Source of the DNA: Macrostomum lignano
Taxonomy: Eukaryota
DNA: 64,000 nucleotides
Direction: 5' to 3'
Assembly (NCBI GenBank): GCA_002269645.1
Contig: NIVC01000169.1
Location: forward strand, 711,308-775,307
Positions 3,059 to 54,854 of the stretch are shown here, piece after piece (positions within the stretch are counted from its first letter, which is position 1; the number at the start of each line of letters is the position of its first letter). The notes under the pieces are model-generated. The model searched no databases, was not told the origin of the DNA, and worked only from the letters and a program-made list of their open reading frames with translations. Made by a program: the position numbers and the translations under genes.

Positions 3059-4072
3059 ATGATGCCGTCATCAAGCATTGCTGACCGGCTTGTCATTCTG
3101 ATCCTTGCCAGCTCCGCAGCCTGCGCTCAGAATAGCAGCAGCAGCAGCAGCAGCTTCGATTCACAGCCAATCTGTCCGAGCGCTCTGTCCGACTGGTCAG
3201 TCCTGGACGTGCCAGTGTCCGGAGTGACTCGGCCGAACTCCTGCATAGTGGAGTGCGCAGTCAGGCCCAACTGCTCAGCTGTACACTACAACAAGACCGC
3301 CGCGTCCTGCTGGACGGCCTCCGGCTGGCAGTGGCAGGACCGCTGGGGCCGGTCGGCGACGCCGTCCGCTGACTGTCTGACATTCACCAAACGGCCCAGT
3401 CCAGCCCAGCAGCTGCCTGCGACCCTCCAGGCCAGCCTGACGCTGTGGTACAGCTTCCGGTACTCGCTGGACAACCTGGCAGGCAATGGCACCGTCCAGC
3501 AGGCGGTGGCGGGCCTGAGATCCGGCGCCGTCAGGAACGCCTCCGGCCTGGTGCTGAACCCCAGCACCGAGTCGCACGCGAATGTCAGCATCCCGAGTGG
3601 CGGCAATCTTGAGTCGCTGTTCTCAAGCGGGAAATTTTCGGTCTACATAAAGGTGGACAGGAGGCCCAGAGGCCAGGAGGTGAGCTACCTGCAGACCTCG
3701 GAGTCCAGCGGCAAGGCTGTGACCTTCATGTCTGAGGCAGCTGACGGCAAGTTCACCGTGGGCTGCAGGCTCTACGCGCAGCGGAGCCAAACCACGACGC
3801 AGGCGGTGCTGAAGACCCCGATAGCCGCCGGCTGGGTGTCTGTCGGCTTCAGCTACGACGGCAGCGCCTTCCGCGTCTTCAACAACGCCACGATGTACGC
3901 GACTAGCAACGATGGCAACCTCCCGGCGGTGTCGGCCTCCACGGAGACTCGGATCGGCGGCAAGTACGGCGACTCCACGGCCACCCTGGACGGCCGGGTT
4001 CTGTGCTTCGGCTTGGCCAACAGACAGCTCAGCTTGTCCGAGTTTGAGACGCTGGAGGCCGCTTGCGACTGA
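3059..4072 (+). CDS. Secreted protein: signal peptide + PAN/Apple-like Cys module + LamG/concanavalin-A-like (pentraxin-like) domain, intronless
   Basis: 337-aa GC-rich ORF with a hydrophobic leader (LVILILASSAACA). CIVECAVRPNCSAVHYNKTAASC fits a PAN pattern. FSVYIKV...WVSVGFSYDG..FRVFNN...RIGG...LDGRV..F...NRQLS fits LamG_3. TATA box upstream. Confidence 0.75.
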   Translation: MMPSSSIADRLVILILASSAACAQNSSSSSSSFDSQPICPSALSDWSVLDVPVSGVTRPNSCIVECAVRPNCSAVHYNKTAASCWTASGWQWQDRWGRSATPSADCLTFTKRPSPAQQLPATLQASLTLWYSFRYSLDNLAGNGTVQQAVAGLRSGAVRNASGLVLNPSTESHANVSIPSGGNLESLFSSGKFSVYIKVDRRPRGQEVSYLQTSESSGKAVTFMSEAADGKFTVGCRLYAQRSQTTTQAVLKTPIAAGWVSVGFSYDGSAFRVFNNATMYATSNDGNLPAVSASTETRIGGKYGDSTATLDGRVLCFGLANRQLSLSEFETLEAACD

Positions 4073-4890: not shown

Positions 4891-7800
4891 TCAAGTTTCA
4901 GATTGCTTTTTCTCTTCATTCTCTGGTTCAGAAGTAGTTTTGTCCTTGTCAGCGGCCGGTGTGTCAGCCAGTTGGTCACCAATGACGTCAGGCCTTGAGT
5001 CTTTGACTGCTTTATCCTGGTTGCTGTCCGGATAGTCGTCCACTGACTTGGCCTTGCTGTGCTTCACGCCGTAGAGAATGTACATCAGCAGGCCTGCGGC
5101 GATGGTGAGGAGCGAATTGCACAAGAGAGTGACTTTGGACTGCAGTGGGAGTGACAATTGGGGCTGAGGGAGTGACAATTGGGGCAGTGGGAGTGACAAT
5201 TGGGGCAGTGGGAGTGACAATTGGGGCAGTGGGAGTGACGATTGGAGCAGTGGGAGTGACAATTGGGGTTGAGGGAGTGACAATTGGGGCAGTGGGAGTG
5301 ACAATTGGGGCTGAGGGAGTGACAATTGGGGTTGAGGGAGTGACAATTGGGGCTGAGGGAGTGACAATTGGGGCAGTGGGAGTGACTTTGGACTGCAGTG
5401 GGAGTGACAATTGGGGCAGTGGGAGTGACAATTGGGGCAGTGGAAGTGACAATAGGGGCAGTGGGAGTGACAATTGGGGCAGTGGGAGTGACTTTGGACT
5501 GCAGTGGGAGTGACAATTGGGGCAGTGGGAGTGACAATTGGGGCAGTGGGAGTGACAATTGGGGCTGAGGGAGTGACAATTGGGGCAGTGGGAGTGACAA
5601 TTGGAGCAGTGGGAGTGACAATTAGGGCAGTGGGAGTGACAATTAGGGCAGTGGGAGTGACAATTAGGGCAGTGGGAGTGACAAGTGGGGCAGTGGGAGT
5701 GACAATTGGGGCAGTGGGAGTGACAATTGGGGCAGTGGGAGTGACAATTGGGGCAGTGGGAGTGACAATTGGGGCAGTGGGAGTGATAATTGGGGCAGTG
5801 GGAGTGACAATTGGGGCAGTGGGAGTGACAATTGGGGCAGTGGGAGTGACAATTGGGGCAGTGGGAGTGACAATTGGGGCAGTGGGAGTGATAATTGGGG
5901 CAGTGGGAGTGACAATTGGGGCAGTGGGAGTGACAATTGGGGCAGTGGGAGTGACAATTGGGGCAGTGGGAGTGACAATTGGGGCAGTGGGAGTGACAAC
6001 TGAGGCTGAGGGAGTGACAATTGGGGTTGAGGGAGTGACAATTGGGGCAGTGGGAGTGACAATTGGGGTTGAGGGAGTGACAATTGTGGCAGTGGGAGTG
6101 ACAAGTGGGGCAGTGGGATCAGACCAGACACAGTAAGGACGAGACCAGACACAGTAAGGATGAGACCAGACACATTAAGGACGAGACTAGACACAGTAAG
6201 GATGAGACTAGACACAGTAAGGATGAGACCAGACACAGTAAGGATGAGACCAGACACAGTAAGGACGAGACTAGACACAGTAAGGATGAGACTAGACACA
6301 GTAAGGATGAGACCAGACACAGTAAGGATGAGACCAGACACAGTAAGGACGAGACTAGACACAGTAAGGATGAGACCAGACACAGTAAGGATGGAACCAG
6401 ACACAGTAGAGCAAAATTTCAAATGCCCCTAGAAGCAAAACCAGTCGCAAACCAAGGAAAAGCCAGCAGAAGAATCGAATCCAGGATCTGATTGACAGCC
6501 TGGACAGCAGCAGGACATTGATCAGAACTGCCAACAGAGGCGCCAGCGGCAGGCCAGGCGACATGTACATTCCAGGCACGTCGTACGGCTTGAAGGCAGT
6601 CAGCAGGGCTCCAGAGAAGATCAGGGCGAGTCCTGGCGGTGCAAGAAAGGCCCAGCGCCAGAGCTGAGTGCCTTTGATAATGACTGACAGGGTGGTGGCC
6701 AGCCAGACGCAACCCAGCAGGAACGCTAAAAACAGTCTGCGAAGCCACCGAACCCTGGCGAGTCCTGGAACGCATCGAGCCAGAATTCCGTTGGCAGCCC
6801 AGGCTCTCAGTTGAACCGGCGAGTCGCCAGGCAGCTCTGCAAAGTGCAAGTAGCGCAGCACGAATAGGTCGACCCCGATGAAGCAGTACGACACCAGGGT
6901 GCCCATGCTGACCATCTCGGCTAGGAAGTTGAGTCTGAACAGCAGGGCCAGTACACTCGATACGACTGCGCCAAAGGCTAAGCCGAGCAGAGGCACCTGC
7001 GTGAGGGAGCGTTGGCAATTCACTGCACTGCTGGCTTCTTTGAGTCATTTCACTGACCTCTGCCTGGCAGTCTGTTTGTCCACCGAATCTCTACCTTATC
7101 AGTCTGTTTGTCCACCAAATCTCTACCTTATCAGTCTGTTTGTCCACCGAATCTCTACCTTATCAGTCTGTTTGTCCACCGAATCTCTAACTTATCAGTC
7201 TGTTTGTCCACCGAATCTCTATCTTAAAGCTTCAGGCTTCAACCACTATCTGCCCGTCACTCCAGCCTCCATCTCGCGCACCTGCACTCTCTCATTAACG
7301 TTGGCAAAGGCACCAAAGATGACCCCGTCAGATGCCAGGGCGTACATGAGCCGCGGCACCACGAACAGCCCGGTAACTTTGGTCGCACCCGTGGCCAGCA
7401 GGGTGCCAACCGCGGCGGTGACCTCCGCCCATTTGGCTCCCGGATGTCCAGAGAAAGCCACCACAAATGGTGCAGCAACGTTGAGCTTCCAGTAGGGCTG
7501 AACGAATGACAGGCCCAAGCAGGCCACAACGTACACCACACTGACGGCCGACAGGCTCGCTAGCAGAGCCCTGGGCAGGTCCCGCTTCGGGTTGCTGCAC
7601 TCCTCCGCTGCCGAGCCGACGCTCTCGAAGCCCGAGAAAGCGAACATGGCGATGCTGGCGCCTTCCACCACGCCGACGCCGCCGAAGGGGAAGAAGCCGC
7701 TGCCGGCAGTCCAGTTGTCAAGGGAGCCGTAGACGAAGCAGGCAACTGTGGCGGTGAGCAGGCACAGCAGCTGAGCAGTGCTCAGTCCAGCGTTAACCGA

Positions 7801-10484
7801 CATTGAGAACTTTGCTCCGCCGATGAGCAGCAGGGCCAAGACTAAGATCAAGCCCACAGCCAGCAGGTCCCAGGTCTCGTCAAAGATTGACCAAGCTTTT
7901 GGCAGAGTGCCAAGATTTGCAGACACGAAGTTGCTGATCTTCTGCTTGCTCAGAGAGTCCACTGTGCCGCTGAATGCCTGTCGGATGGTTTGTGAAACTG
8001 TGCGTTAAATTTTTCGGCCAGATGTGCAACCGACAGCTCAGCCGCAGCTATTGTGCGGCGCATCTGAAGGCTGCGTACGGCTGTTCAGTCCAAGGACGTC
8101 TCTGGGGGGTCGCTACACACAGCCTCAATTACCCCAGTTAATGCTGACACCCATTTTACAGCTGGGTGAACTGAAGCAATGCAGAGTTAAGCGTCTTGCT
8201 CAAGGACACAAATTGTTCAAGTGGGATCGGGAATCGAACCCCCGACCTTCAAGTTGTGAGTCTGACTCTCTAACCCACTAGGCTACAAGCCCCTATAAGA
8301 CCAAGGAAGAATCCCCTTGACATTTTATTGCTGCGCCGGAACCAAATACAAGAACTTTTTGTTGGGCACCTACGCAAACAAGAATCAAGTAGACAGCCGA
8401 GGGACAGACAGTCGAGATATTCAGCAATTCTGCCAGAGGGTCGGCCTTTTACCATGTGAACTCCTGTGCGCCAGTCAGCACTGCGCCTCAGTGCGGCCTT
8501 GCCAAGCCTCCAAATTTCATCAGCACATCGACCATATGTGTCTGCATCAGCTCTGACTTCGTTGGTCACTGGCCGTCACCCCAGGCGGAGCAAATATTGC
8601 GATTTTCTCCTCGATGGTGGTAAAACTGAAAGGTCAGGTGTTCGATTCCCGATCCCACTCGGAACAATTTGTGTCCTTGAGCTAGACGTTTAACTCTGCA
8701 TTGCTTCAGTTCACCCAGCTGTAAAATGGGTGCTTGGGGCAATTGAGAGTGTGGGGCGACCCCCCCCCCCCCCAATCCTTGGGCTGAACAGCCGTACGCA
8801 GCCTTCAGATGCGCCGCGCAATAGCTGCGGCTGAGCTGTCGGTTGCCCATCTTCCCAATTGAGGCAGGTGTAATCATTATTATGCTATTAGGTTTTAGGT
8901 TCGGGTCAGGTTTGGGTAATTGTCAGGATTATACAGCAATTTTTTCATTTCATGCAACTATGCAAGCACTAATGATACCTTAGCAACAGTTGCCATGCTG
9001 AGAATATAGTCCAGCAGCATAGTCCAGCCAACAATGAAGGCGGGCAGCTCTCCCAGAACGCAGTAGGTGTAGGTGTAGGAGCTGCCCGCCTTGGGCACCA
9101 GGCTGGCGAACTCAACGTAGCACATGCCGGTGAAGAGCGAGGCGATGGCGCACAGAGTGAAGCTGAGGCTGGCGGCTGGGCCTGAATAATAGCATATTGG
9201 AGTGTGAAATCGGGCATCATCTGGCGCGAAATACCGGTGATGATAAAATGGCCCCAAAATACCGGTTTGATAAAAACGGCGCCAAAATACCGGTGATGAT
9301 AAAATGGCCCCAAAATACCGGTTTGATAAAAACGGCGCCAAAATACCGGTGATGATAGAAACGGCGCCAAAATACCGGTGATGATAAAATGGCCCCAAAA
9401 TACCGGTGGTGATAAAAAACGGCGCCAAAATACCGGTGATGATAGAAACGGCGCCAAAATACCGGTGATGATAAAAAACGGCGCCAAAATACCGGTGATG
9501 ATAAAAAACGGCGCCAATACTGGTGATAATAAAAAATGGCGCCAAATTACCGGTGGTGATAAAAACGGCGCCAAAATACCGGTTTGATAAAAACGGCGCC
9601 AAAATACCGGTGATGATAGAAACGGCGCCAAAATACAGGTGACGATAAAAAACGGCGCCAAAATACAGGTGATGATAAAAAACGGCGCTAAAATACAGGT
9701 GATGATAAAAACGGCGCCAAAATACAGGTGGTGATAAAAAATGGCGCCAAATTACCGGTGGTGATAAAAACGGCGCCAAAATACCGGTGACGATAAAAAA
9801 CGGCGCTAAAATACCGGTGATGATAAAAACGGCGCCATAATATCGGTGATAATAAAAAATGGCGTTAAAATACCGGTGATTATAAAAACGGCGCCATAAT
9901 ATCGGTGATAATAAAAAATGGCGTTAAAATACCGGTGATGATAAAAACGGCGCCAAAATACAGGTGGTGATAAAAAATGGCGCCAAATTACCGGTGGTGA
10001 TAAAAACGGCGCCAAAATACCGGTGACGATAAAAAACGGCGCTAAAATACCGGTGATGATAAAAACGGCGCCATAATATCGGTGATAATAAAAAATGGCG
10101 TTAAAATACCGGTGATTATAAAAACGGCGCCATAATATCGGTGATAATAAAAAATGGCGTTAAAATACCGGTGATGATAAAAACGGAGCCAAAATACCGG
10201 TGATGATAAAAACGGAGCCAAAATACCGGTGATGATGAAACGGCGCTTAAAAGTACACAACATGCACACGTTCTGGCGCGCCACTCACCAGCGTACTCCT
10301 TGATGACTGTCCCGGACAGAACATAAATCCCGGCACCGGCCATGTGCGCCACCCCGAAGAAGGTCAGATGCCACACAGACAGGCACCGGTTGAGCGGAGT
10401 ATCCAGTGACTGCGCCTCTGTCAGACTCTTCCGTCTGATGGCCTTGGCGCCCAGGAGTTCGATCCAGCTGCGGTCGCGAACCAT
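4891..10484 (-). CDS. Cationic amino acid transporter (SLC7A1-4/CAT family), 5 exons, ~613 aa
   Basis: Exons 10484-10289, 9181-8979, 7977-7282, 6996-6453 and 5093-4891 have compatible phases with GT-AG. Motifs: LNRCLSVWHLTFFGVAHMAGAGIYVLSG, YVEFASLVPKAGSSYTYTY, FAFSGFE..AAEECSNPKRDLP, PRLMYALASDG, SWIRFFCWLFLG|LLMYILYGVKHS. Confidence 0.93.
5128..6116. repeat. 21-bp minisatellite in SLC7 intron 4
   Basis: Unit GGGAGTGACAATTGGGGCAGT, about 47 copies. Confidence 0.95.
6118..6408. repeat. Second, unrelated 21-bp minisatellite abutting the first in SLC7 intron 4
   Basis: Unit GTAAGGATGAGACCAGACACA, about 14 copies. Confidence 0.95.
7067..7224. repeat. 32-bp minisatellite in SLC7 intron 3
   Basis: Unit CAGTCTGTTTGTCCACCGAATCTCTACCTTAT, about 5 copies. 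Confidence 0.9.
8021..8293 (-). mobile_element. tRNA-derived CORE-like SINE, full length
   Basis: The minus strand begins GGGGCTTGTAGCCTAGTGG (A box) ... GGTTCGATTCC (B box). On the + strand the body CCCATTTTACAGCTGGGTGAACTGAAGCAATGCAGAGTTAAGCGTCTTGCTCAAGGACACA resembles the MIR/CORE consensus. A second copy lies 330 bp away. Confidence 0.75.
8625..8851 (+). mobile_element. Second copy of the same SINE, 5'-truncated, inverted relative to the first
   Basis: TGTTCGATTCCCGATCCCAC...TGTGTCCTTGAGC...CAGCTGTAAAATGGG...GCAGCCTTCAGATGCGCCGC...GCTGTCGGTTGCCCATC is the reverse complement of most of 8021-8260. Confidence 0.75.
9225..10250. repeat. ~29-31-bp minisatellite in SLC7 intron 1
   Basis: Unit AAAATACCGGTGATGATAAAAACGGCGCC, with an internal higher-order duplication. 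Confidence 0.95.
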
Positions 10485-10914
10485 CCCGCGACTTTACAAA
10501 TATGTACGGATGTAGCAATTTCAGTTGCTTTCAAATCAACATCGATTTCTAATCAGCATAAATAACTAAACATGTGCATCTAGAGTGGAACCTTAATGAA
10601 GATCAGAGAAGCGACTATTTAAATGAGGATTGGCCAGAGACAATACTAGCTCCACAGATTTTAAAACAATTTCAACTAACTACGAGTAGCAGTTTTGTAG
10701 ACTTTCTCTGGCAATTTTGTAAGTCCAAGAAGTAAAAATACGAGTACACTGTGTACTTTCATGGCATTTTTTGTACAAATATTTCTAGTTGCATGGATCC
10801 TTTTAAGACTAGACTTTATTATTAGTCATTTCATTAGTATATTCATCTGCCCTCGTCTCTGCATGCTTACTCTCCTTCTCTGCCGCTTTGATCACAAGCT
10901 CCAAAACTTCACAT

Positions 10915-12219
10915 GGTCGATTAAGAGACTAACTTAATAAGCTCAAATTTCATAATCACGAATCTTCACAAGCTCGAATCTTCACAAGCTTGAATCTTAC
11001 AAGCTCGAAGCTTCACAAGCTCGAAGCTTCATAAGATCGAATCTTCACAAGCTCGAATCTTCACAAGCTCGAAGCTTCACAAGATCGAATCTTCACAAGC
11101 TCGAAGCTTCATAAGATCGAAGCTTCATAAGATCGAATCTTCACAAGCTCGAATCTTCACAAGATCGAATCTTACAAGCTCGAAGCTTCAAAAGATCGAA
11201 GCTTCACAAGATCGAATCTTCACAAGCTCGAAGCTTCACAAGATCGAATCTTCAAAAGATCGAAGCTTCACAAGATCGAATCTTACAAGCTCGAAGCTTC
11301 ACAAGATCGAAGCTTCACAAGATCGAATCTTCACAAGCTCGAAGCTTCACAAGATCGAATCTTCAAAAGATCGAAGCTTCACAAGATCGAATCTTACAAG
11401 CTCGAAGCTTCAAAAGATCGAAGCTTCACAAGATCGAATCTTCACAAGCTCGAAGCTTCACAAGATCGAATCTTCCAAAGCTCGAAGCTTCACAAGATCT
11501 AATCTTACAAGCTCGAAGCTTCACAAGATCTAATCTTCAAAAGCTCGAAGCTTCACAAGCTCGAATCTTCAAAAGATCGAATCTTCACAAGCTCGAATCT
11601 TCAAAAGCTCGAATCTTCACAAGCTCGAAGCTTCAAAAGCTCGATGCTTCACAAGCTCGAAGCTTCACAAGATCGAATATTCAAAAAGCTCGAAGCTTCA
11701 CAAGATCGAATCTTACAAGCTCGAAGCTTCACAAGATCGAATCTTCAAAAGCTCGAAGCTTCACAAGATCGAATCTTCACAAGCTCGAAGCTTCACAGAA
11801 AGATACTTTACATCGTCGATTAAGATTAACTTTATAAGCTCAAATTTCATAATCACGAATCTTCCAAAGCTCGAAGCTTCACAAGATCTAATCTTACAAG
11901 CTCGAAGCTTCACAAGATCTAATCTTCAAAAGCTCGAAGCTTCACAAGCTCGAATCTTCAAAAGATCGAATCTTCACAAGCTCGAATCTTCAAAAGCTCG
12001 AATCTTCACAAGCTCGAAGCTTCAAAAGCTCGAAGCTTCACAAGATCGAATATTCAAAAGCTCGAAGCTTCACAAGATCTAATCTTCAGAAGCTCGAATC
12101 TTCAAAAGATCGAAGCTTCACAAAATCGAATCTTCACAAGCTCGAAGCTTCACAAGATCGAATCTTCAAAAGCTCGAAGCTTCACAGAAAGAAACTTCAC
12201 ATAGTCGATTAAGACTAAC
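10915..12219. repeat. 16-bp satellite with higher-order spacer, left of the LTR insertion
   Basis: Units TCGAAGCTTCACAAGA / TCGAATCTTCACAAGC. A spacer GTCGATTAAGACTAACTTAATAAGCTCAAATTTCATAATCACG recurs at ~10917, ~11815, ~12205/16675 and ~16846. Confidence 0.93.
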
Positions 12220-12226
12220 TGTCAGA

Positions 12227-12421
12227 TGTCAGTGCGCAAGCACTAATCATCTAATGTTCATACTGTATATTTAAGTTTATTTTCTGTCTATGGTCTTAAT
12301 CTTGAGGACAGCGGCCTACCAAATATATACTCTTATGCAACCGACGGACCACGGCTGGAAAGCGCTTAGACCGAAGCACCGTCATCCTACATCGCATAGT
12401 CTCATCGGCCATAACTCGACA
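12227..12421 (+). repeat. 5' LTR (195 bp)
   Basis: TGTCAGTGCG...CTCGACA, preceded by 7 extra nt (TGTCAGA). Confidence 0.95.
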
Positions 12422-12422
12422 G

Positions 12423-12440
12423 TGGCGACGAGGATGGGAT
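12423..12440 (+). promoter_or_regulatory. Primer-binding site, tRNA-Ser(GCT) type
   Basis: TGGCGACGAGGATGGGAT is the reverse complement of the metazoan tRNA-Ser(GCT) 3' end ATCCCATCCTCGTCGCCA (recalled sequence). It starts 1 nt after the LTR. Confidence 0.85.
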
Positions 12441-15400
12441 CCATTGGCAGAATCCCTGCGCTCACGGCAAACTCCGATGTAGACGTCTACCTGGAGAGGT
12501 TTGACCAATTCCTCAAATACAAGGAGATCAAAGATGAGGCAAAGGTTGCAACGCTTGTGACTGCCATTGGAGAAGAGGCATACAAAGTGCTTCGCAATCT
12601 GTGCCAGCCCGATGCTGTGGCTTCAAGGTCATACGAAGATCTGGTGAAACTTCTAAAGGAGCACTATGCTCCGAAGACTTCTATGCTCTCGGCGAGATTT
12701 CGGTTCCAGCAGTGCGTGCAGAGACCGGGTGAGAGCTTCGCTGACTTGATTTCCGGTCTCAAGGCCGCATCAGAGCACTGCGAATTCGGCACGGCTGATC
12801 AAATAAAAGAGAGGCTGAGGGATCAACTCGTCTTCGGTCTTCGCAGCGACTCTCACCGTGCCAAGATTTTAGAAATTGAAAAGCCAGATTTTCAAGCTCT
12901 GATTTCCAAGGTCAACGCTCTGGAAGCAGCCGAGACGAACTCTACTGAGATGGCGCATAAAGTGGAACCGATGGCTCACCTGCGGTACTCCAAGAAGCCA
13001 GCGTCCAAGGTCAGCGAAAACAGCCAAAAGTCTCCGGCCAGCGTCACCCAGGCAAGTTGGGCAGCGGGAGCGTGTGCCAGCTGCGGCGGTGCCCACAGTA
13101 GGCAGCAATGCAAACTTCGCGAGGCTAAGTGCCACAACTGCGGCAAGGTCGGCCACATCCGGAAGGTGTGCAGATCCTCTAAGCTGCACAAGATGGATAC
13201 GGAGACGGCTGAGCTACAGGAGCCCCTCTTCAGCATTCGCCCAAACGGATCCAGCAAGGGACTGAGAATCGAGTTGCTGCTGCAAGGCCAGCCATGTTGT
13301 TTTGAGGTTGACACCGGGTCCGCCCTCACCGTCATCCCAAAAGCAATTCAGGAGAAGGTACTGCCTGGACTTTGCCTGTCGCCGACTTCCACGGTGCTTA
13401 GAACCTACACCGGCGAGAGCTTCCGGCCAGTCGGTCAGGCGGACGTCACCGTCCAGCACAACGGCCAGGGTCGGCGACTGACGCTATTGGTGGTCGAGCG
13501 TGGCGACGTCGCACTGCTCGGCCGTGACTGGCTGACGGAGCTGAAGCTGGACTGGCCAAACATCCTCAGCCAAGTCAACTCAGTGGCTGGTGAAGCTGGC
13601 GACCTGCTAGCGCAGTTCCTCGAGGTCTTCCAAGGCGGCTTAGGCACCTATCGGTACGGGAAGGTCACGCTGCACATGCCGGTGGAGGCCAAGCCGCGCT
13701 TCTTCAAGGCCAGACCGGTTCCCTACGCTCTCAGGGATTGCGTTGACGAGGAGCTGCGACGGATGGAAGCTGACGGAATCATCACTCCTGTCAAGTACTC
13801 CGACTGGGCGGCGCCCATCGTGCCGGTGGTCAAAAAGAACGGTGCGGTGAGAATCTGTGGCGACTACAAGCTGACTTACAACGCCGAAGCCAGGCCCGAG
13901 CTATACCCATTGCCGCGCATCGAGGACCTGTTTGCCAAGCTGGGCGGCGGCTGCAAGTGGTCCAAGCTGGACATGTCCAATGCTTTCCTGCAACTGCCGC
14001 TATCCCAGGACAGTAGCGGCCTATTTGACATGCGATCATGCCGTTCGTGACATGCGATCATGCGATCATGCCGTTCGTGACATGCGATCATGCGATCATG
14101 CCGTTCGTGACATGCGATCATGCGATCATGCCGTTCGTGACATGCGATCATGCGATCATGCCTGAATCGCATGCCGTTCGGCATCAACTGCGCCAGCGCC
14201 GTGTTCCAGCGCACGCTCGACTCGCTGCTCGGAGACTTAGAGCCGGTTCAGGTATTTGTCGACGATATCCTAGTAACAGGCAAGACTCTGCATCATCATC
14301 ACCAGAACCTGGTAAAGGTACTTCAACGCCTACAAGAGGCGGGACTGCGGTTGAACAGGGAAAAATGCGAGTTCTTCCGTGACTCGGTTGAGTACCTAGG
14401 CCATCGAATCGACAGCAACGGACTCCAGCCGCTGGCTGAAAAGGTAACGGCGGTGCAGAATGCGCCGTCACCTACAGACTGCAGCCAGCTCCGAGCTTAC
14501 CTGGGCATGCTGACGCACTACGGCAAGTTCTTGCCGAATCTGTCAACGGTTATCGCTCCGTTAAACCAGCTTCTGACGAAGAACACACGCTGGACTTGGG
14601 AAGGACCTCAACAGCAGGCCTTCGAGAAGTCCAAGCGTCTCCTGCTGGAGTCTCCAGTGCTCATTCACTACGATGCTAAGCTGCCGCTGCGACTGGAGTG
14701 CGACGCCAGCCCCTACGGATTGGGTGTGGTGCTGACGCATCGCGTGGATGGCAAGGACCGGGCCATCGCCTTTGCCAGCCGCAGCTTGACCACAGCTCAG
14801 AAGGGCTACTCGCAGCTGGACAAGGAAGCGTTAGCGATTATGTTCGGCCTCCAGCGCTTCCATAAGTTCCTCCAGGGCCGCAAGTTCGTCATCGTAACCG
14901 ACCACAAGCCGCTCCTGGGACTCCTAGGGGAGCACAAGGGCATCCCGGAACACGCGGCGGCTCGCATGCAGCGCTGGGCGATCCGCTTGGCGGGCTACGA
15001 CTACTCGCTGGAGTTCCGGCCGACCAGCCAGCACGCCAACTGCGATTCGCTCTCCCGCCTGCCGCTGCCAAGGCAATTTGAGGAGGAGCCGGCCGTGAAC
15101 GCTCTGCTGCTAAACGAGGAGACCGGATCCGCCATAACGGCTAAGGCAGTGGCGCGGCACACCCGAACAGACGCCGTCCTCGGCCGCGTACTGCGCTGCC
15201 TAGAGGCCGGCGTGCCCATGACCGGCTCGGATCTCATCGACTTTGCCAGGCGTAGCAACGAGCTGAGCGTCGAGCAGGGCTGCGTGCTGTGGGGCGCCCG
15301 CGTTGTGGTGCCGACGGCTCTGCGGCAAGGCGTGCTGGACGAGCTGCACCAGGCGCACCCCGGCATCAACCGCATTCGAGCGCTGGCCCGCAGCTATGTC

Positions 15401-16426
15401 TGGTGGCCAGGCCTTGACAAGCAACTCGAGACGACTGTCAAGTCTTGCCGGACCTGCATGCTCAACCAAGCCGACCCTCCCAAGGCGCCAGTGCAGCCAT
15501 GGCCGTTTCCGGCTGAACCATGGGCGAGGCTGCACCTGGACTTCGCAGGCCCTGTTGACGGCAGCACCTACCTGGTGATTGTGGATGCCTTTAGTAAGTG
15601 GCCGGAGGTTCTTCGGGTGCACAGCGTCACGTCTATGGCTACCATTGAGCGGCTCCGCGAGGTCTTCGCCAGACTGGGTATCCCCCGGGTACTGGTTTCC
15701 GACAACGGCACGCAGTTCACATCTGCGGAGTTCGCCGAATTCACTAGGCGCAACGGCATCCGTCACGTCTTCTCTGCACCATTTCACCCGGCAACGAACG
15801 GGCAGGCGGAGAGATTCGTCCAAGTGCTTAAGCGGCACCTGGTCAAGAGCGGGCACTCAGCGGCCGCTCTGCAGCAAATGTTGATGACTTATCGCAACAC
15901 GCCGCACTCCATCACCGGTGCGGCCCCCAGCCAGCTGCTCATCGGAAGGAAATTGCGCAGTCGGTTGGACTTGCTGATGCCATCGCTGACGGACAGCATG
16001 CAACAACGCCATGAGCAGGAGGTGGAGCAGCAGCCGCAGGCGCGTGATTTCCAAACCGGTGATAAGGTTCTGCTGCGAAACTTTAGTTCGAGCGCCAGGG
16101 TCGGCGGAGGCACTCGTTGGACCGAAGGTACCGTGCGATCTGCCGGCGCGCGCAACTGCACTGTTGAAGCTGATGGCACCATCCACCGACGGCACACCGA
16201 TCAGCTGTTGACAAATTCGCTTCCCGATGCCGAGGCCGTGTCATCACCGGAACTCTCAGATGCGACGACCCCGACAATTGCTGAGATGCCAGACAAAGTC
16301 GCTGGACCCATAGACAGCGAGATCATCAACCCTGCTGACAGCATCGGTGGCACAGTTGCAACGAACACCCAGGCCAGGCGTTACCCACAGCGGCGCAGAC
16401 AACCGCCGGATCGCCTTCAACTATGA
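12434..16426 (+). pseudogene. gag-pol polyprotein in a single frame, interrupted by a 132-nt in-frame insertion carrying 4 TGA stops
   Basis: Two zinc knuckles (CASCGGAHSRQQC, CHNCGKVGHIRKVC), protease VDTGS, RT RICGDYK...FVDD, RNase H CDAS/KEALA/TDHKPL, integrase HHCC and HLDF/SDNG/QAER. ORFs 12290-14050 and 14150-16426 share one frame. Confidence 0.93.
14026..14161. repeat. 30-bp tandem repeat (4.5 copies) inside the RT coding region
   Basis: Unit CCGTTCGTGACATGCGATCATGCGATCATG at 14041-14160, plus a partial copy upstream. Confidence 0.97.
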
Positions 16427-16469
16427 TTGGGGACTGTTACTTTGACCTGACTGAATTTCTTCGAACTTT

Positions 16470-16479
16470 AGGGGGGAGA
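16470..16479 (+). promoter_or_regulatory. Polypurine tract
   Basis: AGGGGGGAGA immediately before the 3' LTR. Confidence 0.9.
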
Positions 16480-16674
16480 TGTCAGTGCGCAAGCACTAAT
16501 CATCTAATGTTCATACTGTATATTCAAGTTTATTTTCTGTCTATGGTCTTAATCTTGAGGACAGCGGCCTACCAAATATATACTCTTATGCAACCGACGG
16601 ACCACGGCTGGAAAGCGCTTAGACCGAAGCACCGTCATCCTACATCGCATAGTCTCATCGGCCATAACTCGACA
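16480..16674 (+). repeat. 3' LTR (195 bp)
   Basis: Identical to the 5' LTR except one T/C (TATATTTAAG vs TATATTCAAG). Confidence 0.95.
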
Positions 16675-17150
16675 CTAACTTAATAAGCTCAAATTTCATA
16701 ATCACGAATCTTACAAAGCTCGAAGCTTCACAAGATCGAATCTTCACAAGCTCGAAGCTTCACAAGATCGAATCTTCAAAAGCTCGAAGCTTCACAAGAT
16801 CGAATCTTCAAAAGCTCGAAGCTTCACAGAAAGAAACTTCACATAGTCGATTAAGACTAACTTTATAAGCTCAAATTTCATAATCACGAATCTTACAAAG
16901 CTCGAAGCTTCACAAGATCGAATCTTCACAAGTTCGAAGCTTCACAAGCTCGAATCTTCACAAGCTCGAAGCTTCACAAGATTGAATCTTCAAAAGCTCG
17001 AAGCTTCACAAGCTCGAATCTTTACAAGCTCGAAGCTTCATAAGATTGGATCTTCACAAGCTCGAAGCTTCATAAGAATGGATCTTCACAAGCTCGAAGC
17101 TTCATAAGATCGGATCTTCACAAGCTCGAATCTTTACAAGTTTGAAATTT
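16675..17150. repeat. Continuation of the 16-bp satellite right of the LTR element
   Basis: The same units and spacer resume exactly after the TSD. Confidence 0.93.
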
Positions 17151-17866: not shown

Positions 17867-20800
17867 TCAGACCAGCTCGAGCGAGGGCCAATGGGCCGCG
17901 TTGACTTTTTTGAGCAGAATTTCCACCTTGGTGGGCCGGATATTCACGCAGGATTGCGACGGGTCGATCACCTGCGAGAGGGGGGTTGAATGGCTATTAG
18001 GACAATAAATCAAGGTCAGTTAAGGTCATAAAAATGTACGTGCAAATAAGAAAGTGTGAATGACTTCGAATCTTATATAAGATTAGATATTCTTAAATCG
18101 CAAATTAGATATACTTAAATCTCGTATAAGATACTCGAATCTCATATAAGATTAGACACCGGAATCTCATATAAGATTAGACACTGGAATCTCATATAAG
18201 ATTAGACACTGGAATCTCGTATAAGATTAGACACCGGAATCTCATATAAGATTAGACACTGGAATCTCGTATAAGATTAGACACCGGAATCTCATATAAG
18301 ATTAGACACTGGAATCTCATATAAGATTAGACACTGGAATCTCGTATAAGATTAGACACCGGAATCTCATATAAGATTAGACACTGGAATCTCATATAAG
18401 ATTAGACACTGGAATCTCGTATAAGATTAGACACCGGAATCTCATATAAGATTAGACACTGGAATCTCGTATAAGATTAGACACCGGAATCTCATATAAG
18501 ATTAGACACTGGAATCTCATATAAGATTAGACACTGGAATCTCGTATAAGATTAGACACCGGAATCTCATATAAGATTAGACACTCGAATCTCATAAAAG
18601 ATTAGACACTGTAATCTCATATAAGATTAGACACTGGAATCTCATATAAGATTAGACACTGGAATCTCGTATAAGATTAGACACCGGAATCTCATATAAG
18701 ATTAGACACTAGAATCTCATAAGATTAGACACTGGAATCTCATATAAGATTAGACACTGGAATCTCGTATAAGATTAGACACTGGAATCTCATATAAGAT
18801 TAGACACTGTAATCTCGTATAAGATTAGACACTGGAATCTCATATAAGATTAGACACTGGAATCTCATATAAGATTAGACACTGGAATCTCGTATAAGAT
18901 TAGCCACTGGAATCTCATATAGGATTAGACACTGGAATCTCATATAAGATTAGACACTGGAATCTCATATAGGATTAGACACTGGAATCTCATATAAGAT
19001 TAGACACTGGAATCTCATATAAGATTAGACACTGGAATCTCATATAAGATTAGACACTGGACTCTCATATAAGATTAGACACTGGAATCTCATATAAGAT
19101 TAGACACTGGAATCTCATATAGGATTAGACACTGTAATCTCATATAAGATTAGACACTGGAATCTCATATAAGATTAGACACTGGACTCTCGTATAAGAT
19201 TAGACACTGGAATCTCATATAAGATTAGACAACAATGAAATGAGTAAGTGCTCACATCGTAGAGCACAAAGTCGCGCTGAAACCGGCTCTGCCCAGCTGC
19301 AAACAGCAGCTTGACAGAGCAGCAGACCCGATTAGCTTCGATGACGCATTCCTCTGGGACACACAGCTTTGCAAACACATCAAGCGTGATGTAACCGGCC
19401 TTGCCCTGATGATGGTCGCAGCGGCAATGGACGCTGGCAGGACCATCCTTGCTATCGTCACCTTTAGAGTTCGGTTTAGTCCAGCAGTGCTTGCCCTGCT
19501 CGCAGCCCTCCTGAGACATGAAATTATCGAACTCTGTGGTCTTCCTCTGGCAGCAGCTCCAGTACTTCATGCCCTCGTGGAACACGGGGCCGCCTGGGTG
19601 GTAGTAGCAGACCTGCCTGTCCGACTGTGGCCCGGAGTAGGTGGCCCGGCAGCCCGAGTTTTTGCAACCGGTTCCCATGGCAACGCTGCCGTTGTCGGAT
19701 GAGGCCGAGGCAGCGGAGTCTGGTTGCTGGGCGGAACCGCTGGCGGCGGCCTTCTCGGCTTCGGCCCTGCGACGCTCGGCTGTTTTGTCCAGCTCGGCTA
19801 GCAACCGGGAGTCCACCTGGATTTCAGAAGGAGCGAGTTGAGGGCGATTCTAAGAATGAGTTGAGGGCGATTCTAAGAATGGGTTGAGGGCGATTCTAAG
19901 AATGAGTTGAGGGCGATTCTAAGAATGAGTTGAGGGCGATTCTAAGAATGAGTTGAGGGAGATTCTAAGAATGAGTTAAGGGAGATTCTAAGAATGAGTT
20001 GAGGGCGATTCTAAGAATGAGTTGAGGGCGATTCTAAGAATGAGTTGAGGGCGATTCTAAGAATGAGTTGAGGGCGATTCTAAGAATGAGTTGAGGGCGA
20101 TTCTAAGAATGAGTTGAGGGCGATTCTAAGAATGAGTTGAGGGCGATTCTAACAATGAGTTGAGGGCGATTCTAAGAATGAGTTGAGGGAGATTCTAAGA
20201 ATGAGTTGAGGGAGATTCTAAGAATGAGTTGAGGGAGATTCTAAGAATGAGTTGAGGGAGATTCTAAGAATGAGTTGAGGGCGATTCTAAGAATGAGTTG
20301 AGGGCGATTCTAAGAATGAGTTGAGGGCGATTCTAAGAATGAGTTGAGGGCGATTCTAAGAATGAGTTGAGGGCGATTCTAAGAATGAGTTGAGGGAGAT
20401 TCTAAGAATGAGTTGAGGGAGATTCTAAGAATGAGTTGAGGGCGATTCTAAGAATGAGTTGAGGGCGATTCTAAGAATGAGTTGAGGGCGATTCTAAGAA
20501 TGAGTTGAGGGCGATTCTAAGAATGAGTTGAGGGCGATTCTAAGAATGAGTTGAGGGCGATTCTAAGAATGATTTAAGTATGATTCTAAGAATGATTTAA
20601 GTATGACTCTAAGAATGATTTAAGTATGACTCTAAAGATGATTTATGGGTTCTATGAATAAGTTAATGGCGATTCTAAGAATCATTTAAAAAGCGATTCT
20701 AAGAATAAGTGAAACATGCTTCTAAGAAACATTTACGAGCAATTCTAAAAATGTATTAAGAGCGATTCTACAAATGATTTAAATATGATTCTAAGAATAT

Positions 20801-28620: not shown

Positions 28621-31600
28621 ATGTCCTCTGTAAAACAGCAGACAGGAGCAACGGAGAACCTCGTTAGAGTTAGCGCTGAAATGCTAAGCACCGTTGCACC
28701 CTCCAGTCGAGAGCAGATGATAGAACACGGCACCCGATTTGTGCAGTTTGTTCACAGTAAAAATACCAAAGTTGATCTGCGTACAATCGACGAGAGAGCC
28801 GTCAACGAGTACCTGCGCTTCTTCTATTTCACGTTGCGAACGAAGCAAGATAAATTGTATTCCCCGTCGTCGCTAATCTGCATCCGGGCTGGGATTCAGC
28901 GCTATTTCGATGTGGTGCTGGGTCGACCGCTAATCCTGCCCGGAAATCCGGTGTTCATGACCTCCAACCGGATGTTGGGCCAGCGAGCTCGGGAATATGC
29001 TAGCTCCAGTGGCAGCTCCGTGCGACACTATGCGCCAATGCTGCACGCTGACCGTCAACTGCTTGAAGACTATTTCAATGGCAGCAGTGCCGGAGGTTAC
29101 TCGATGGAGGAGCGTCTACAAGATGGAGCGCTATTCGCGTTGTTCTACCATTTTGGCTGCACCCCATCGCAGCACCAGCAGAGGCATAACCAACAGGCCC
29201 AGCAAAAGCTAATAAGACGCGACCACCTAGTGTTCTCTATCGACGAAGAGGGTCGTGAATTCGCAACTCTGGAGCAGGATGAAGGCTTCTACACAGATTT
29301 AACACCTGGCGGAACCAGCAGGAATGCCTGTGGGTCGGTGCGAATGTACACGGGCTTAGAGCAGCTGAAGTCATACATCAACCTATTGCCGGAATTTACT
29401 AATGACAACTCGCTATTCCCTAAACCGGCGCGCAACGGTAGAGGCTATTCTACCAGTATTAATCGGGGTATTAATTATATGCAGAATTTTATGCGATACG
29501 TCAGCAAGAAAGCACGGCTTAGCAAGCTGTACTCGAACCACTGCATTCGGTGAGACTATATCCCTTGGCTTTGTCATTTCACATTACACACAGAAAATCG
29601 CATCGTAAAATCTTACATGTACTTTATTACTTTTAGAAGTAAGATACGTCTGTTTACTTTAAGAATTACATAGATGACAGATAAGTACATACAAGTAGTG
29701 CTTGTTCGAAAAACATCTTCTGCTCAAGCATGGTGGTACTGGGCTTCATTTCATAAAATCGCGACAAGTTATAAAAAATCTTTGGGATCAATTTCGTTCC
29801 AACAGGACTTAAGAGAGCCTTCGGGAGGTTGTAAAAGAGGGAGGAGGGGTTATCGATGTACAGGCTAGCTTGTCTCCGGAGGAGGTTGGCGCCTTGGCAG
29901 GGTGTGATACTAAAATTGAAGAAAGGAAAGGCCCAACCAACCCTTAAACTGCGATAGGGTCTGCAATGTACATTATCCTGTCCCTAGAAGGGGTTATAGC
30001 TAGGGCTCGGATGGCGAGGCAATAAAATCGATAATAAAGGCGGCTAGAGAGAGGGTTTTATTTTACTGTTATTTTTAATCAGACTAAGACACTTAAAGTA
30101 TACTAAACCAAAGCATTTAACCAGTCCTGGCTCCACAAGTGATAATTTAACTAATTTAAGGCCATAGACATTTTATTATTATTTTCCTATATACTAAAAA
30201 TGAGTTGTCTGTATGTATGTATGTATGTATGTATATGGGTATGCGATAGATTTCAGAAAAAACGGCTCAACCGATTTTCTTCAAACTTGCACCATTCGAT
30301 CAGAAATTTTTCTGGGACGGTACATGCATCTTAGCTAAGAAATTGCTAAATGTGAAAGGGATTAAATATTCATTATACCATGTGAATTTCAATTCTGATA
30401 AAGATTGCATCGCAACAAATTGAAAACAGTGTCGAAGAAATGCACACACGACTTGATTTAAATTGCGTAACCATATTGCTAACTTAAATTGAGACTGATA
30501 CTGGCTGACTGAGAAATTGATTATGTCATAACTTTTTACTCCAATTGACTTGCTGTAAGAATTGAATTATAAGGGCCACAATTCATGTGCTCCAATTGAA
30601 AAAAGATAGCCTAGATGCGAACAGACTGGACTGCTAATGTAGCGATCTGGGTTCGAATCTTAGTAGCGCAAATAGATTTTTTTATTAAAACAACTTAAAA
30701 ACAAAAAACTGCTAAACATAAAAGAAGCGCAATGTCAAACATAGAAGAGCCACCATGTCAAAAATAAAAGAGCCACCATATCGAACATAAAAGAGTTACC
30801 ATGTAAAACATTAAAGAGCCACCATGTAGAATATTAAAGAGCCACCATGTCAAACATAAAACAGCCACCATTTCGAAAATTAAAAAGCCATTATGTCAAA
30901 CATAAAAAAGCCACCATGTCAAACATAAAAGAGCCATCATGAAGAACATTAAAGAGCCACCATGTCGACCATTAAAAGAGCCACCATGTCGAACATTAAA
31001 AGAGCCACCATGTCGAACATACAAGAGCCACCATGTCAAACATAGAAGAGCCACCATGTCGACCATTAAAAGAGCCACCATGTCGAACATTAAAAGAGCC
31101 ACCATGTCAAACATAGAAGAGCCACCATGTCAAACATAGAAGAGCCACCATGTCAAACATAGAAGAGCCACCATGTCAAACATAGAAGAGCCACCATGTC
31201 AAACATAGAAGAGCCACCATGTCAAACATAGAAGAGCCACCATGTCAAACATTAAAGATATACAATTTCAAATGAAAAGGTATAAAGCGCCATGCCAATT
31301 TAAAGGAGCCACTATAAAGCTAAGGAAATTGTTGCACTTAGCTACTGGTACTTATTGTCTGGTGGATGCTTGCTATTTGGGGATGCTTGCTATCTGGGGG
31401 ATGCTTGCTATCTGGGGGATGCTTGCTATCTGGGGAATGAATGGGAATGCGCCCAGTAAAGTAGTATTTTTGTCGCCAGGCTAGAGAACTATAAATGTAG
31501 ACTGCGAGAAAAGATCGTACATTATAAAATCTCCCCGTGCACAATCATATATACTAAAAATGAGTTGTCTGTGCGTATGCGATAGATTTCAGAAAAATTG

Positions 31601-34600
31601 GCTCAACCGATTTTCTTCAAACTTGCACCATCTAAATATACTAAATCTCTAAGGTTTGTATGCTTGAATCCCATATACTAAAAATGAGTTGTCTGTATGT
31701 GGGTAGGTATGCGATAGATTTTAGAAAAAACGGCTCAACCGATTTTCTTCAAACTTGCACCATTCTCATGCACCATATCTGAGCTCATGTAGTTCAGATA
31801 TTGAAATAGTACACACAAGTGATGCTGATTTCTGCTAATAGGAAATACCAGCGCATTTATTAAAGGTTTCATTCTTTGATCTAGGCTAATTAAAAGAGAG
31901 GGTCTAAGGCCGTCAATGATTTGCATATTTGCTGCGGATAAGAATATGCCCCGGCCAGCGACGATATGCACTAAGAGTTTGTGCTTGAAAGGATCAGCAC
32001 TATTTGCTGATTGAGAAAGGGTTTTGGGCTGATGAAGGAAACTTTTTTGGCTGATGAAAGTTCTGATTCATGGCAATTTATTTTTGCCAAAATGAGAAAA
32101 AATAATTTTTGAATAATGGAAATCAACATTTTGGATAATTATAGTAAGGTTACTCTTGTGTCAAAATAAAAACCAACTGGTGTCATTTTCAAGGCTCCCC
32201 AGAGGGGGGCTAAATGGCTAGTCTAAATATACTAAATCTCTAAGGTTTGTATGCTTGAATCCTATATACTAAAAATGTGATGTCTATATATATGTTCGAT
32301 CAGAAAATTTCCCGTGACTGTACATGCGTCGTGGCTAAGAAATTGTTCCATGCTAAAGGCATTAAATATTCGAAAAACATGCTTTTTTGCAAAGGTCAAG
32401 CAGCTCTTTCGACTTGAAATGCATTGTAAGAATGCTAGAGAAAAAACTGACTGGTTGAATTCTGATTCTGAAATAGATTGCATCATAACTGAATTGTAAC
32501 TCCGACTTGAATTGAAAATGCAGTGTGGAAGCGTAGCACCAGACTTGATTTAAATTGCGTAACCATATTGTTAACTGATACTGACTGACTGAGAAACTGA
32601 TTATGTCATAACTGCTTCGTGTGATTTACTCTATGCTTGGATTTTAAAGTGTTGAATTATATAAGTGCAAAATTTGATGTTATCAAAACGATGAGAGCTA
32701 GCCTAGAGGTGAACAAACTGAACTGCTAAATGCAGCGACGATGGTTCGAATTTTCATAGAGTATAATTTTTTTAATTTAAGCTTTTCAACGTCAGGAAAA
32801 CTAAAAGACTTTTTAAAAAGAATCGTCATGTAAAAATCGTAGAAGCGTCGTGTAAACAATCAGAGAAGCGTCATGTAAAAATCGTAGAAGCGTCATGTAA
32901 ACAATCATAGAAGCGTCATGTAAAGAATCGTAGAAGCGTCATGTAAACAATCATAGAAGCGTCATGTAAAAAATCATAGAAGCGTCATGTAAAGAATCGT
33001 AGAAGCGTCATGTAAACAATCATAGAAGCGTCATTTAAAAAATCATAGAAGCGTCATTTAAAAAATCATAGAAGCGTCACGTAAACAATCATAGAAGCGA
33101 CATGTAAAAAATCGTAGAAGCGTCATGTAAAAAATCATAGAAGCGTCATGTAAAAAATCATAGAAGCGTCATGTAAACAATCATAGAAGCGTCATGTAAA
33201 AATCATAGAAGCGCCATGTAAAAAATCATAGAAGCGTCATGTAAAAAATCATAGAAGCGTCATGTAAACAATCATAGAAGCGTCATGTAAAAAATCATAG
33301 AAGCCTCATTTAAAAATCATAGAAGCGTCATGTAAGCAATCATAGAAGCGTCATGTAAAAATCATAAAAGCGTCATGTAAACAATCATAGAAGCGTCATG
33401 TAAAAATCGTAGCAGCGTCATGAAAAAATCATAGAAGCGTCATGTAAGCAATCATAGAAGCGTCATGTAAACAATCATAGAAGCGTCATGTAAACAATCA
33501 AAGAAGCGTCATGTAAAAAATCATAGAAGCGTCATGTAAACAATCATAGAAGCGTCATGTAAACAATCATAGAAGCGCCATGTAAAAAATCATAGAAGCG
33601 TCATTTTTTAAAAAATCATAGAAGCGTCATGTAAACAATCATAGAAGCGTCATGTAAAAAATCATAGAAGCGTCATGTAAAAAATCATAGAAGCGTCATG
33701 TAAAAGTCATAGAAGCGTCATGAAAAAATCATAGAAGCCTCATTTAAAAAGTAATGAAAGTGTCATTTAAAATATTAAGAAGCATCATGGTAGAATAAAA
33801 GAAGCGTCATGTCAGACATGAAGGGTGTGATGTAAAAATTAAATGAAGCTATAATGCTGTGCTGGGGAGAATTACTGAGACGTCAAGGCTCTCAGAGAAT
33901 AACTGAGATTACGGGGGGGGGTTTCTGAGATGTCAAAGCAAAAGTCAGAGGCTACTTCAAAGTTCATGTACTTTACTCAATTTTTTATTGCATTCTTTGT
34001 TGGACTTTGTTGGCTCGCCACGGGGGGGCGCAGGTATAAAAAGCGTAATGTAAAAAATAAAAGAAGCTTCATGTCGAAGTTAAGAGATTCATTTAGGAAT
34101 CCCTACGATGTCGAGGCTTGCAGGGAATCGCTATAATGCTGTAGTAGTGCTATAATGACTCTCAGAGAGAATTACTGAAATTTCAATGCTTTAGGGTTAG
34201 GTTAGGGTTAGGGTTAGGGTAGGGTTAGGGTTAGGCTAGGGTTAGGGTTAGAAGGTTGACAGATATTTTTAGATTTTCAAGGCTTATTGGGGGCATTGCT
34301 GAGATGTCAAGGGGGGAAGTTGATGTGTTAAAGCTTGTGGGGGGAATTATTGACATGTCAAGGCTTACAAGGTTTGACAGGAGATTTTTTAAGATTTCAA
34401 GGATATATGTAGCTTATTAAAAAACGTGTATTGCATTTCTTTGGCTCCCCAACGGGGGGCGTAGATTGCTAGTCCCATATACTAAAAATGAGTTGTCTGT
34501 ATGTGGGTAGGTATGCGATAGATTTTAGAAAAAACGGCTCAACCGATTTTCTTCAAACTTGCACCATTTGATCAGAAATTTTCCTGGGACGGTACATGCA

Positions 34601-44394: not shown

Positions 44395-44761
44395 ATGACT
44401 GGATGATGAGACTCAGAGACCTGGTTTCCTCGTTTTTTATTGAGTTTTTAAACTTCAAGTTACGTAGGTCGGCTTGTTAAAGGCTACTTTAGTGCATACA
44501 TGTAGTATTCAGTAGTATCAGTAGGTTTTTTCACATTTCTCTTATCAAATGCTGAAGCTTGGTAAAATTTTTATATTACTCTACAGTCTAAAATTAATTA
44601 ATTAACCTTTCAAAGACACGCCGTTGAAGTGGTTATTGTTAAAATATATACTGTTTGTTTATTTGTAATCTGTTTCGTTAAAATATAAAATGATATTTAA
44701 TACTCTTAGTTTTAAAAACAGGTTGTGCTACCGAAAGATCTACGTAGATTTAATAGGAGTA

Positions 44762-44900
44762 GATGTGTTTCGGGCTTTGGATGTGTTTCAGGCTCTTTAG
44801 ACGCCTTTCAGGATCTAGAGAGCCTGAAGCATATCTAGAGAGCCTGAAACACATCTAGAGACTTTGAAACCCGTCTAGAGATTCCTGAAAGCGTCCAGAG
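44762..44900. repeat. Fold-back made of ~20-bp units in opposite orientations
   Basis: GATGTGTTTCAGGCTCT (44780-44796) is the exact reverse complement of 44839-44855. Confidence 0.8.
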
Positions 44901-48700: not shown

Positions 48701-49121
48701 GGCGCCGTTATCTGCAACAACTGACATAGGCTAGGCTAATGCAATGCCCATCAAACACTTCAAGCTATATTAGCGCGGTGACTCATCAATGTTTCTTTTT
48801 TCATTGTTGCTCATCTTTCAAAACACCGCTTATTCCAGCCGTCTTTTCATCAACCCCCACTTTCAACCTGGCCAATTAAAGCAGTTAAAGGCAATGAAAT
48901 GATAACCATATGTGGCACAAAGTAAACACTGCCAAAGCCCGAACGCTAGGGGTTTAGGACGCAAGTAGAAGCCTCGACAGCAAAGGCCATTAAAACTGCA
49001 ACAGCCATCCGAGCTAAAATTGACTTCGCCAGAAAAAAATCTTCTCTTGAACTCTGCAGCGCCAGCGTCTCTGTGTTGATTTTTGTTTCGCCACCCTTTT
49101 CTGCAGATCGACGCTAGCGGC

Positions 49122-54854
<5,733 letters not shown>

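Follow-up and report, generated by a model that had tools for sequence, protein, structure and literature searches.

The first copies of a minisatellite are rarely seen, and the ancestral state is usually lost. In Macrostomum lignano, sister copies of a Ty3/gypsy element have kept that state for one short array, and the locus raises the question of how a perfect 30-nt tandem repeat came to stand within a reverse transcriptase (RT) gene. The window that we analysed is a 64,000-nt stretch of contig C169 (NIVC01000169.1, positions 711308-775307) in a 764-Mb assembly, to which all coordinates refer unless another contig is named; the element lies at 12220-16674 on its forward strand. It has the TG...CA long terminal repeats (LTRs) and the 5-bp target-site duplication of such elements, together with Pfam matches to gag (weak), RT, RNase H and integrase in Ty3/gypsy order (Table 1). 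The protease is represented by a DTG motif only, which we read from the sequence of the first frame and take to mark it. The copy is embedded in an older 16/32-nt array, and on two homologous contigs, C193 and C3538, the same flanks are found approximately 1.1 kb apart with the whole element absent. At the start of this host array (window 10900-10940), C3538 carries approximately 0.75 kb of other sequence. The element copy in the window is dead, its RT frame having been destroyed by the 30-nt array.

Table 1. Features of the Ty3/gypsy element and of the array within its RT gene, in window coordinates.
Feature	Position	Strand	Remarks
Left target-site duplication	12215-12219		5 nt, identical at 16675-16679
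5' LTR	12220-12421	+	202 nt, TG...CA; start equal in both LTRs of the C2719 sister
gag-protease-RT (5' part) frame	12275-14050	+	closed by a stop within the array; Retrotrans_gag E 7e-5, just under the cut-off
Extra base	14017	+	12 nt left of the junction; frame shift; missing in the C543 and C2719 sisters
Left flank end TGAC	14026-14029	+	recurs in every unit; from sequence and sister alignment
132-nt insert	14030-14161	+	replaces 28 nt of the RT gene; four in-frame TGA stops
Perfect 4.5 x 30-nt array	14029-14162	+	insert plus one flank base per side
19-nt template zone	14162-14180		14166-14173 inverted source, 14170-14180 direct source
Palindrome GCATGC	14169-14174		likely switch point
RT (3' part), RNase H, integrase frame	14162-16426	+	RVT_1 E 1e-18, RT_RNaseH E 2e-31, Integrase_H2C2 E 3e-14, rve E 8e-15
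3' LTR	16480-16674	+	195 nt; one substitution against the 5' LTR, first 7 nt absent
Right target-site duplication	16675-16679		5 nt, identical at 12215-12219

Using window positions 13700-14500 as a query, we identified sister copies of the scarred element at 98-99% (C543 and C2719) and at 88% (C1280). Measured from anchor to anchor, the interval spans 111 nt in all three sisters and 216 nt in the window, the difference comprising the extra base and 132 nt in place of 28 nt. The insert and its amplification as a 30-bp unit, both foreseen from the window sequence, were borne out by the alignment and by a period of 30 with 100% matches over 4.5 copies. The net change in length is a multiple of three, yet every unit adds an in-frame TGA. 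The 28 nt lost encode, in the sisters, the conserved RT motif that the original prediction had found missing. That prediction had placed the loss of this TINTH-type segment in a separate deletion approximately 15 nt upstream of the insert, using an apparent 'GLF' as its landmark. The sisters do keep the motif and the window copy does lack it, but the location needs correcting: the 28 nt stand exactly at the position of the insert, and 'GLF' is a shifted reading that appears because the extra base at 14017 displaces the frame. With the insert absent from the sisters and the motif retained in them, the comparison upholds the scar, which is one event and mostly as originally described.

We then considered read support, drawing on short-read contigs from seven of the 15 listed runs, six of which (X1, X2, X6, X8, X9 and X10) contain the array. 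X1 and X2 derive from one sample of 2015, X10 dates from 2017, and X6, X8 and X9 from 2024. Across these runs, which represent three studies and five samples, the unit and a junction were found with 0-1 differences, as the original prediction required. A 72-nt contig present in both X1 and X2 spans the extra base and the left junction with zero differences, the right junction is covered by contigs in X6, X8, X9 and X10, and the 30-nt loop occurs in all six runs (in X1 according to the depth table). In X3, a run bearing another organism label, only the insert-free form is present, joined across by one contig.

The depths of these contigs carry information on copy number. The array consists of 104 31-mers of 30 kinds, so that a loop-to-junction depth ratio of 3.47 is expected; the ratios found were 3.3 (X2), 3.0 (X6), 2.9 (X8) and 3.9 (X10), which fit an unchanged 4.5-copy array in these four runs. 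A ratio of 1.5 in X9 was set aside: the junction contig of that run reaches 303 nt, so that its depth is averaged over other sequence. In X2 the junction has a depth of 137, compared to 125 for a contig bearing the differences of the C2719 sister, and these depths fit an inherited single-copy allele. An artefact of assembly or library construction is therefore very improbable, given a unit and junction at roughly single-copy depth in runs from 2015, 2017 and 2024. It would draw on the facts that these are contigs rather than raw reads, that the 2015 runs are possibly the source of the assembly, and that none of the listed contigs of the examined runs spans the array whole. The junction contigs extend 29-43 letters (in one case 87) per side, 1-2 short of the 31-letter bridging rule. 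No contig was found for the left junction in X6, X8, X9 and X10, or for the right junction in X1 and X2. We take this to be pruning of the assembly graph, where the 30-word loop is left uncut on the other side and there is no other loose end, and it proves nothing.

Having placed the insert, we asked what its unit is made of. The 134-nt array tiles fully into nine inverted 8-mers, four direct 11-mers plus one 6-nt piece, and four TGA linkers. Both the direct copy of 14170-14180 and the inverted copy of 14166-14173 lie where the original prediction saw them, with lengths of 11 and 8 nt, respectively; if one skipped base is permitted, the inverted copy matches 10 of 11 template bases. Each TGA linker, together with the base that follows it, reproduces the four bases with which the left flank ends. 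The direct and inverted pieces begin with the same five letters because 14169-14174 is the palindrome GCATGC. Of the CATG and GATC palindromes once proposed to join the pieces, the first is found at the likely switch point in the flank, and GATC occurs only at the new joints. We also weighed a source for the TGAC linker farther away, near 14376, and rejected it because, by a hand estimate, the match is probably due to chance.

These matches were compared with other sites and with shuffled units. A direct match of 11 nt within 50 nt was found at 0 of 674 other sites in the element; among 20,000 shuffled units, 13 reached it. Taken alone, the inverted match of 8 nt is weak (27/674 and 676/20,000), and the two jointly were seen at none of the 674 sites and in none of the 20,000 shuffles. 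Flank 6-mers cover 90% of the first unit, a level reached by one of 5,000 shuffles, and every source piece falls within 19 nt of the right junction or 4 nt of the left. The unit is absent from the sisters, and its longest match to the flanks is 11 of 30 nt. Nor is it a dispersed family: a 22-nt probe, allowed up to two mismatches across the whole genome, returned four matches, all within 14029-14162, so the unit is private to this locus. Collectively, the sequence comparisons suggest that the 30-nt unit did not exist as contiguous sequence before the event and was newly written from pieces of the flanks.

Given what is shown, namely the 28-nt loss, the 132-nt gain, the origin of the pieces and the occurrence of the unit at one locus, we infer the following course of events. 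The replacement of 28 nt by 132 nt likely reflects a chromosomal break repaired by Pol theta-type synthesis-dependent end joining that re-primed at the flanking 6-bp palindrome, a reading to which we assign a probability of roughly two in three. A germ-line break and trimming would have removed the 28 nt. A 3' end carrying CATG(C) could then have paired with either strand at GCATGC, where extension one way would give the direct 11-mer and extension the other way the inverted 8-mer. A jump back to the left junction would supply the TGAC linker and close the 30-nt cycle, which would be re-copied about 3.5 more times before the ends were joined through microhomology, one base long at the right junction and one (or four) at the left. 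The outcome would be a dead element copy and a new locus-specific minisatellite. Whether the re-copying took place within the same repair or came later, by slippage or unequal exchange, is a closer call; we lean somewhat towards repetition in one step on account of the perfect copies and the steady depth ratios. Counting against the one-step view, a neighbouring 23-mer array has 38 copies in the window and 627 in a homolog, so expansion is active in this region.

Several features of the locus accord with this mechanism. Relative to the three sisters, deletion and insertion coincide at one junction, and the sources of the insert, direct and inverted, fall within 19 nt of it, inside the approximately 30 nt over which SD-MMEJ templates reach; primers in that pathway can be as short as one base (Khodaverdian et al. 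2017, PMC5728401, in the portion of that paper bearing on reach). In the relevant parts of their accounts, Yu and McVey (2010, PMC2943611) describe complex inserts that take several synthesis rounds to form and are not seen in polQ flies, and Kent et al. (2016, PMC4912351) describe a Pol theta that alternates between snap-back and in-trans copying. The genome encodes a full POLQ on C1342 (DEAD, Helicase_C, HTH_61, POLQ_helical and DNA_pol_A, with Pol theta as the best PDB matches). Matches to family A polymerases assigned to POLQ were seen on C1342, C672, C2099 and C4792, of which C1342 was verified. A second family A polymerase gene, on C616, C1020 and C2108, is perhaps Pol nu, in our estimation. 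The signature that had been attributed to Pol theta holds as regards the deletion and the direct and inverted templated pieces, and Pol theta itself is the best-fitting agent that we can propose.

Other features count against this explanation. A CATG(C) primer is shared at the palindrome, but microhomology at the joins is short, with 1 nt on the right side and either 1 or 4 nt on the left, and nothing obvious could have primed the jump to the linker. Published SD-MMEJ inserts, as far as the sections describing them go, are also less regular than this perfect 4.5-fold array. In one study, according to the part that reports it, human cells null for POLQ showed no depletion of locally templated inserts (PMC9241439), which argues against Pol theta as their sole source.

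FoSTeS/MMBIR-like switching can yield the same direct and inverted local copies. The scar might thus have been made without Pol theta, by serial short template switches at a stalled fork or one-ended break, or by Ku-dependent fill-in with a polymerase of family X or Y. Ku genes are present in the genome, short imperfect duplications are frequent between the homologous contigs, and MMBIR-linked templated inserts are cited in the reference list of PMC9241439. We consider this route unlikely, though not negligible: the templates lie within approximately 20 nt of the ends and were copied in steps of 8-11 nt, which is the scale of SD-MMEJ, and polQ flies lose long complex inserts, according to the passages of PMC2943611 that concern them.

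The duplications in question emerged from a three-way comparison of the homologous contigs, which yielded 194 length differences. Of these, 114 lie outside long arrays and measure less than 450 nt; 100 could be polarised and 14 could not. The polarised differences are mostly short deletions and imperfect duplications of 5-21 nt, as judged by eye, since substitutions blur the automatic classes. A second clear patchwork unit repeated at least three times was not found in this comparison, and among 16 further indels scored in host DNA none is as clear as the focal insert. Two inserts outside the element, each known from the assembly only, are similar patchworks without much repetition, and they count in favour of the end-joining reading. 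At C193 ~54450-54490 (window 63010-63030), an AT-rich inverted and direct patchwork with a 13-nt x 3.7 repeat stands against nine other bases of the window; this 24-33-nt insert was equalled in 44 of 5,000 shuffles and has no third copy by which to polarise it. At C3538 ~49100-49360 (window 7340-7460), a net loss of 55 nt accompanies a 208-nt insert in a host reading frame, and 87 of the 208 nt tile to local sequence (mean 18, maximum 68 in 1,000 shuffles). It could be a repair scar or an unpolished stretch of long reads. The corresponding frame in the window (7246-8004, minus strand) resembles an exon of what we take to be an amino-acid transporter. A 50-nt x3 array at C1342 ~95700-95870 was rejected as a patchwork, being a plain duplication of contiguous sequence. 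Its unit occurs in three copies on C1342, once on C672, once at one place on C2099 and at least four times at a second place there, so that the polarity of the array is not fixed.

Since the scar lies in a retroelement copy, the element's own RT has to be considered as well. Retroviral RT can make deletions with insertions. On this account repeated template switching before integration would have produced the scar, and the copy would have arrived dead. The scarred copy has also lost the first 7 nt of its 3' LTR, and the nearest sister, on C543, has two more templated-looking inserts, the 30-nt one of which was matched in 144 of 5,000 shuffles. We nevertheless regard this account as improbable. 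The inverted pieces would require several fold-backs on nascent DNA at one spot, patchwork inserts are found outside the element too, and in a related family with nine or more members, copies compared over 2.7-3.3 kb differ by no more than 19 gap letters. The substitutions specific to the window copy, five synonymous and seven non-synonymous, do not separate events before integration from events after it. Among the titles listed by our literature search, none concerned deletion with insertion by retroviral RT.

The sister on C543 (locus L031) merits description in its own right, from the assembly only for both inserts. The 30-nt insert, at ~3565-3595, combines direct and inverted pieces of its flanks and contains an internal repeat of 12 nt. 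The left end of this sister is truncated; there, at ~2940-2975, 17 nt of the LTR end stand in inverted copy, and a partial repeat comes next. A short piece whose inverted ends measure 24 nt cuts the right end (~5804-5900); it had no match in the other DNA compared and is possibly a miniature inverted-repeat element.

When did the event occur? The original prediction inferred a recent event from LTRs differing at one site. They do differ by a single substitution in 195 positions, to which the 7 nt absent from the 3' LTR must be added. The window copy has 12 private substitutions over 2,750 sites (0.44%), compared to 299 differences over 19,422 sites (1.5%) between host DNA of the window and C193, which indicates a young element that arrived after the homologs split. 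LTRs date the insertion of the element and not the scar, and the age of the element bounds the scar only if the scar postdates integration. No scar-free copy of this insertion was found, and C193 and C3538 lack the whole element; thus the scar cannot be placed after integration.

The original prediction further proposed that templated repair gave rise to palindrome-cored arrays throughout the window. To the window we added 38 content-blind 10-kb stretches and 23 kb of C193, for a sample of 467 kb, in which tandem repeats make up 142,659 of 467,300 nt (~30%). Filters on period (10-100), copy number (at least 3), complexity and edge distance passed 165 of 326 arrays, leaving 164 arrays with 155 distinct units once the focal array was excluded. 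Palindromes of at least 6 nt occur in 7 of the 26 distinct units in the window, against 7.0-7.6 in shuffles, so that palindrome cores are no commoner there than expected by chance; nor are they enriched when the sample is taken as a whole, where 45 of the 155 distinct units have one and two types of shuffle give 46.9 and 43.3. Inverted flank matches of at least 8 nt are in marginal excess, at 12/164 compared to 5.2 (maximum 11) in 200 permutations, and compared to 7 when flanks lying 100-150 nt away are used (paired p = 0.35). Direct flank matches are enriched (45, against 17 and 5.6) because array edges are ragged. A single array of the 164 reaches both of the thresholds set by the focal unit, and it is old, with 57 copies; the 12 arrays with an inverted flank copy include none of the four other young-looking arrays in the sample. 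The negative is a weak one, as old arrays may have lost the signal.

Comparison of the homologous contigs gives a similar picture. Every long host array of the window for which a counterpart stretch exists is also present on C193, C3538 or both, so the birth of these arrays is not visible here. One of them was confined to its locus among the matches listed (best 100 of 121). As judged from the sequences, the long host arrays are probably locus-specific but old, older than the three homologous copies of the locus. With no enrichment of palindromes, a marginal inverted excess and arrays shared with homologs, templated repair is not supported as the mechanism of the window's arrays. It is improbable that iterative Pol theta synthesis at germ-line breaks is a main source of this animal's many locus-specific minisatellites, with the unit and first copies written at once and later expansion erasing the flank signature. 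If it were true, the focal locus would represent the newborn stage of such minisatellites.

Four further features of the window are described here as observations. The 23-nt array mentioned above (19835-20710; 38 copies) has 40 copies on C193, and its 627 copies on C3538 are 99% alike, which suggests a large recent expansion in that one homolog. A host frame at 19175-19849 (minus strand) has Cys/His motifs that, to our eye, resemble a CHORD domain. In the region 44760-44890, the unit of a 20-nt array reappears inverted over 17 nt immediately to the left of the array, and two arrays stand head to head. A 13.3-kb block (30184-43476) with repeated sub-blocks, 23-nt and 18-nt arrays and short TTAGGG-like runs is missing from C193 and C3538.

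The significance of the locus has clear bounds: the mechanism is a known one, the event is single and lies in a dead element copy with no host-gene effect, and there is no sign that it explains other arrays. Within them, a unit that was newly written from flank pieces, and not duplicated, gives a repair-scar route to tandem arrays a concrete and testable form. Our literature search, which lacked most subscription papers, turned up no report of a natural minisatellite that had grown out of a templated repair scar. Long complex inserts are illustrated in supplementary figure S4 of PMC2943611, which may contain tandem examples.

Among known systems, the insert appears by sequence criteria to be an SD-MMEJ-like complex insertion. 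It shares with those described in the pertinent parts of PMC2943611, PMC5728401 and PMC4912351 a deletion accompanied by overlapping direct and inverted copies from within approximately 30 nt, and it may share their short primers and several rounds of synthesis. Those followed an induced break, whereas ours is a natural, inherited event with a perfect 4.5-fold array of one 30-nt composite unit. SD-MMEJ has already been suggested to expand and diversify short repeats, in the section of PMC5728401 that raises the matter. The array also conforms to a minisatellite in being a head-to-tail repeat with a unit of 10-100 bp. Minisatellite birth has been ascribed to the duplication of a stretch bounded by short direct repeats (Haber and Louis 1998, as relayed in part by PMC6947457). 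The products are alike in being short, locus-specific arrays of local sequence, often within a transposable element. The unit in that model is contiguous and ancestral, whereas no pre-existing contiguous unit between direct repeats is found here, and in its place stand a new patchwork with an inverted piece and a 28-nt loss. Finally, minisatellites derived from LTR elements, as portrayed in the relevant portions of PMC6947457 and PMC9659126, the latter naming end joining as one route to tandem arrays, resemble the present case in that the array was born in an element copy. They differ from it in that the array described here occupies one copy, is not spread by the element, and has killed the RT frame in which it arose.
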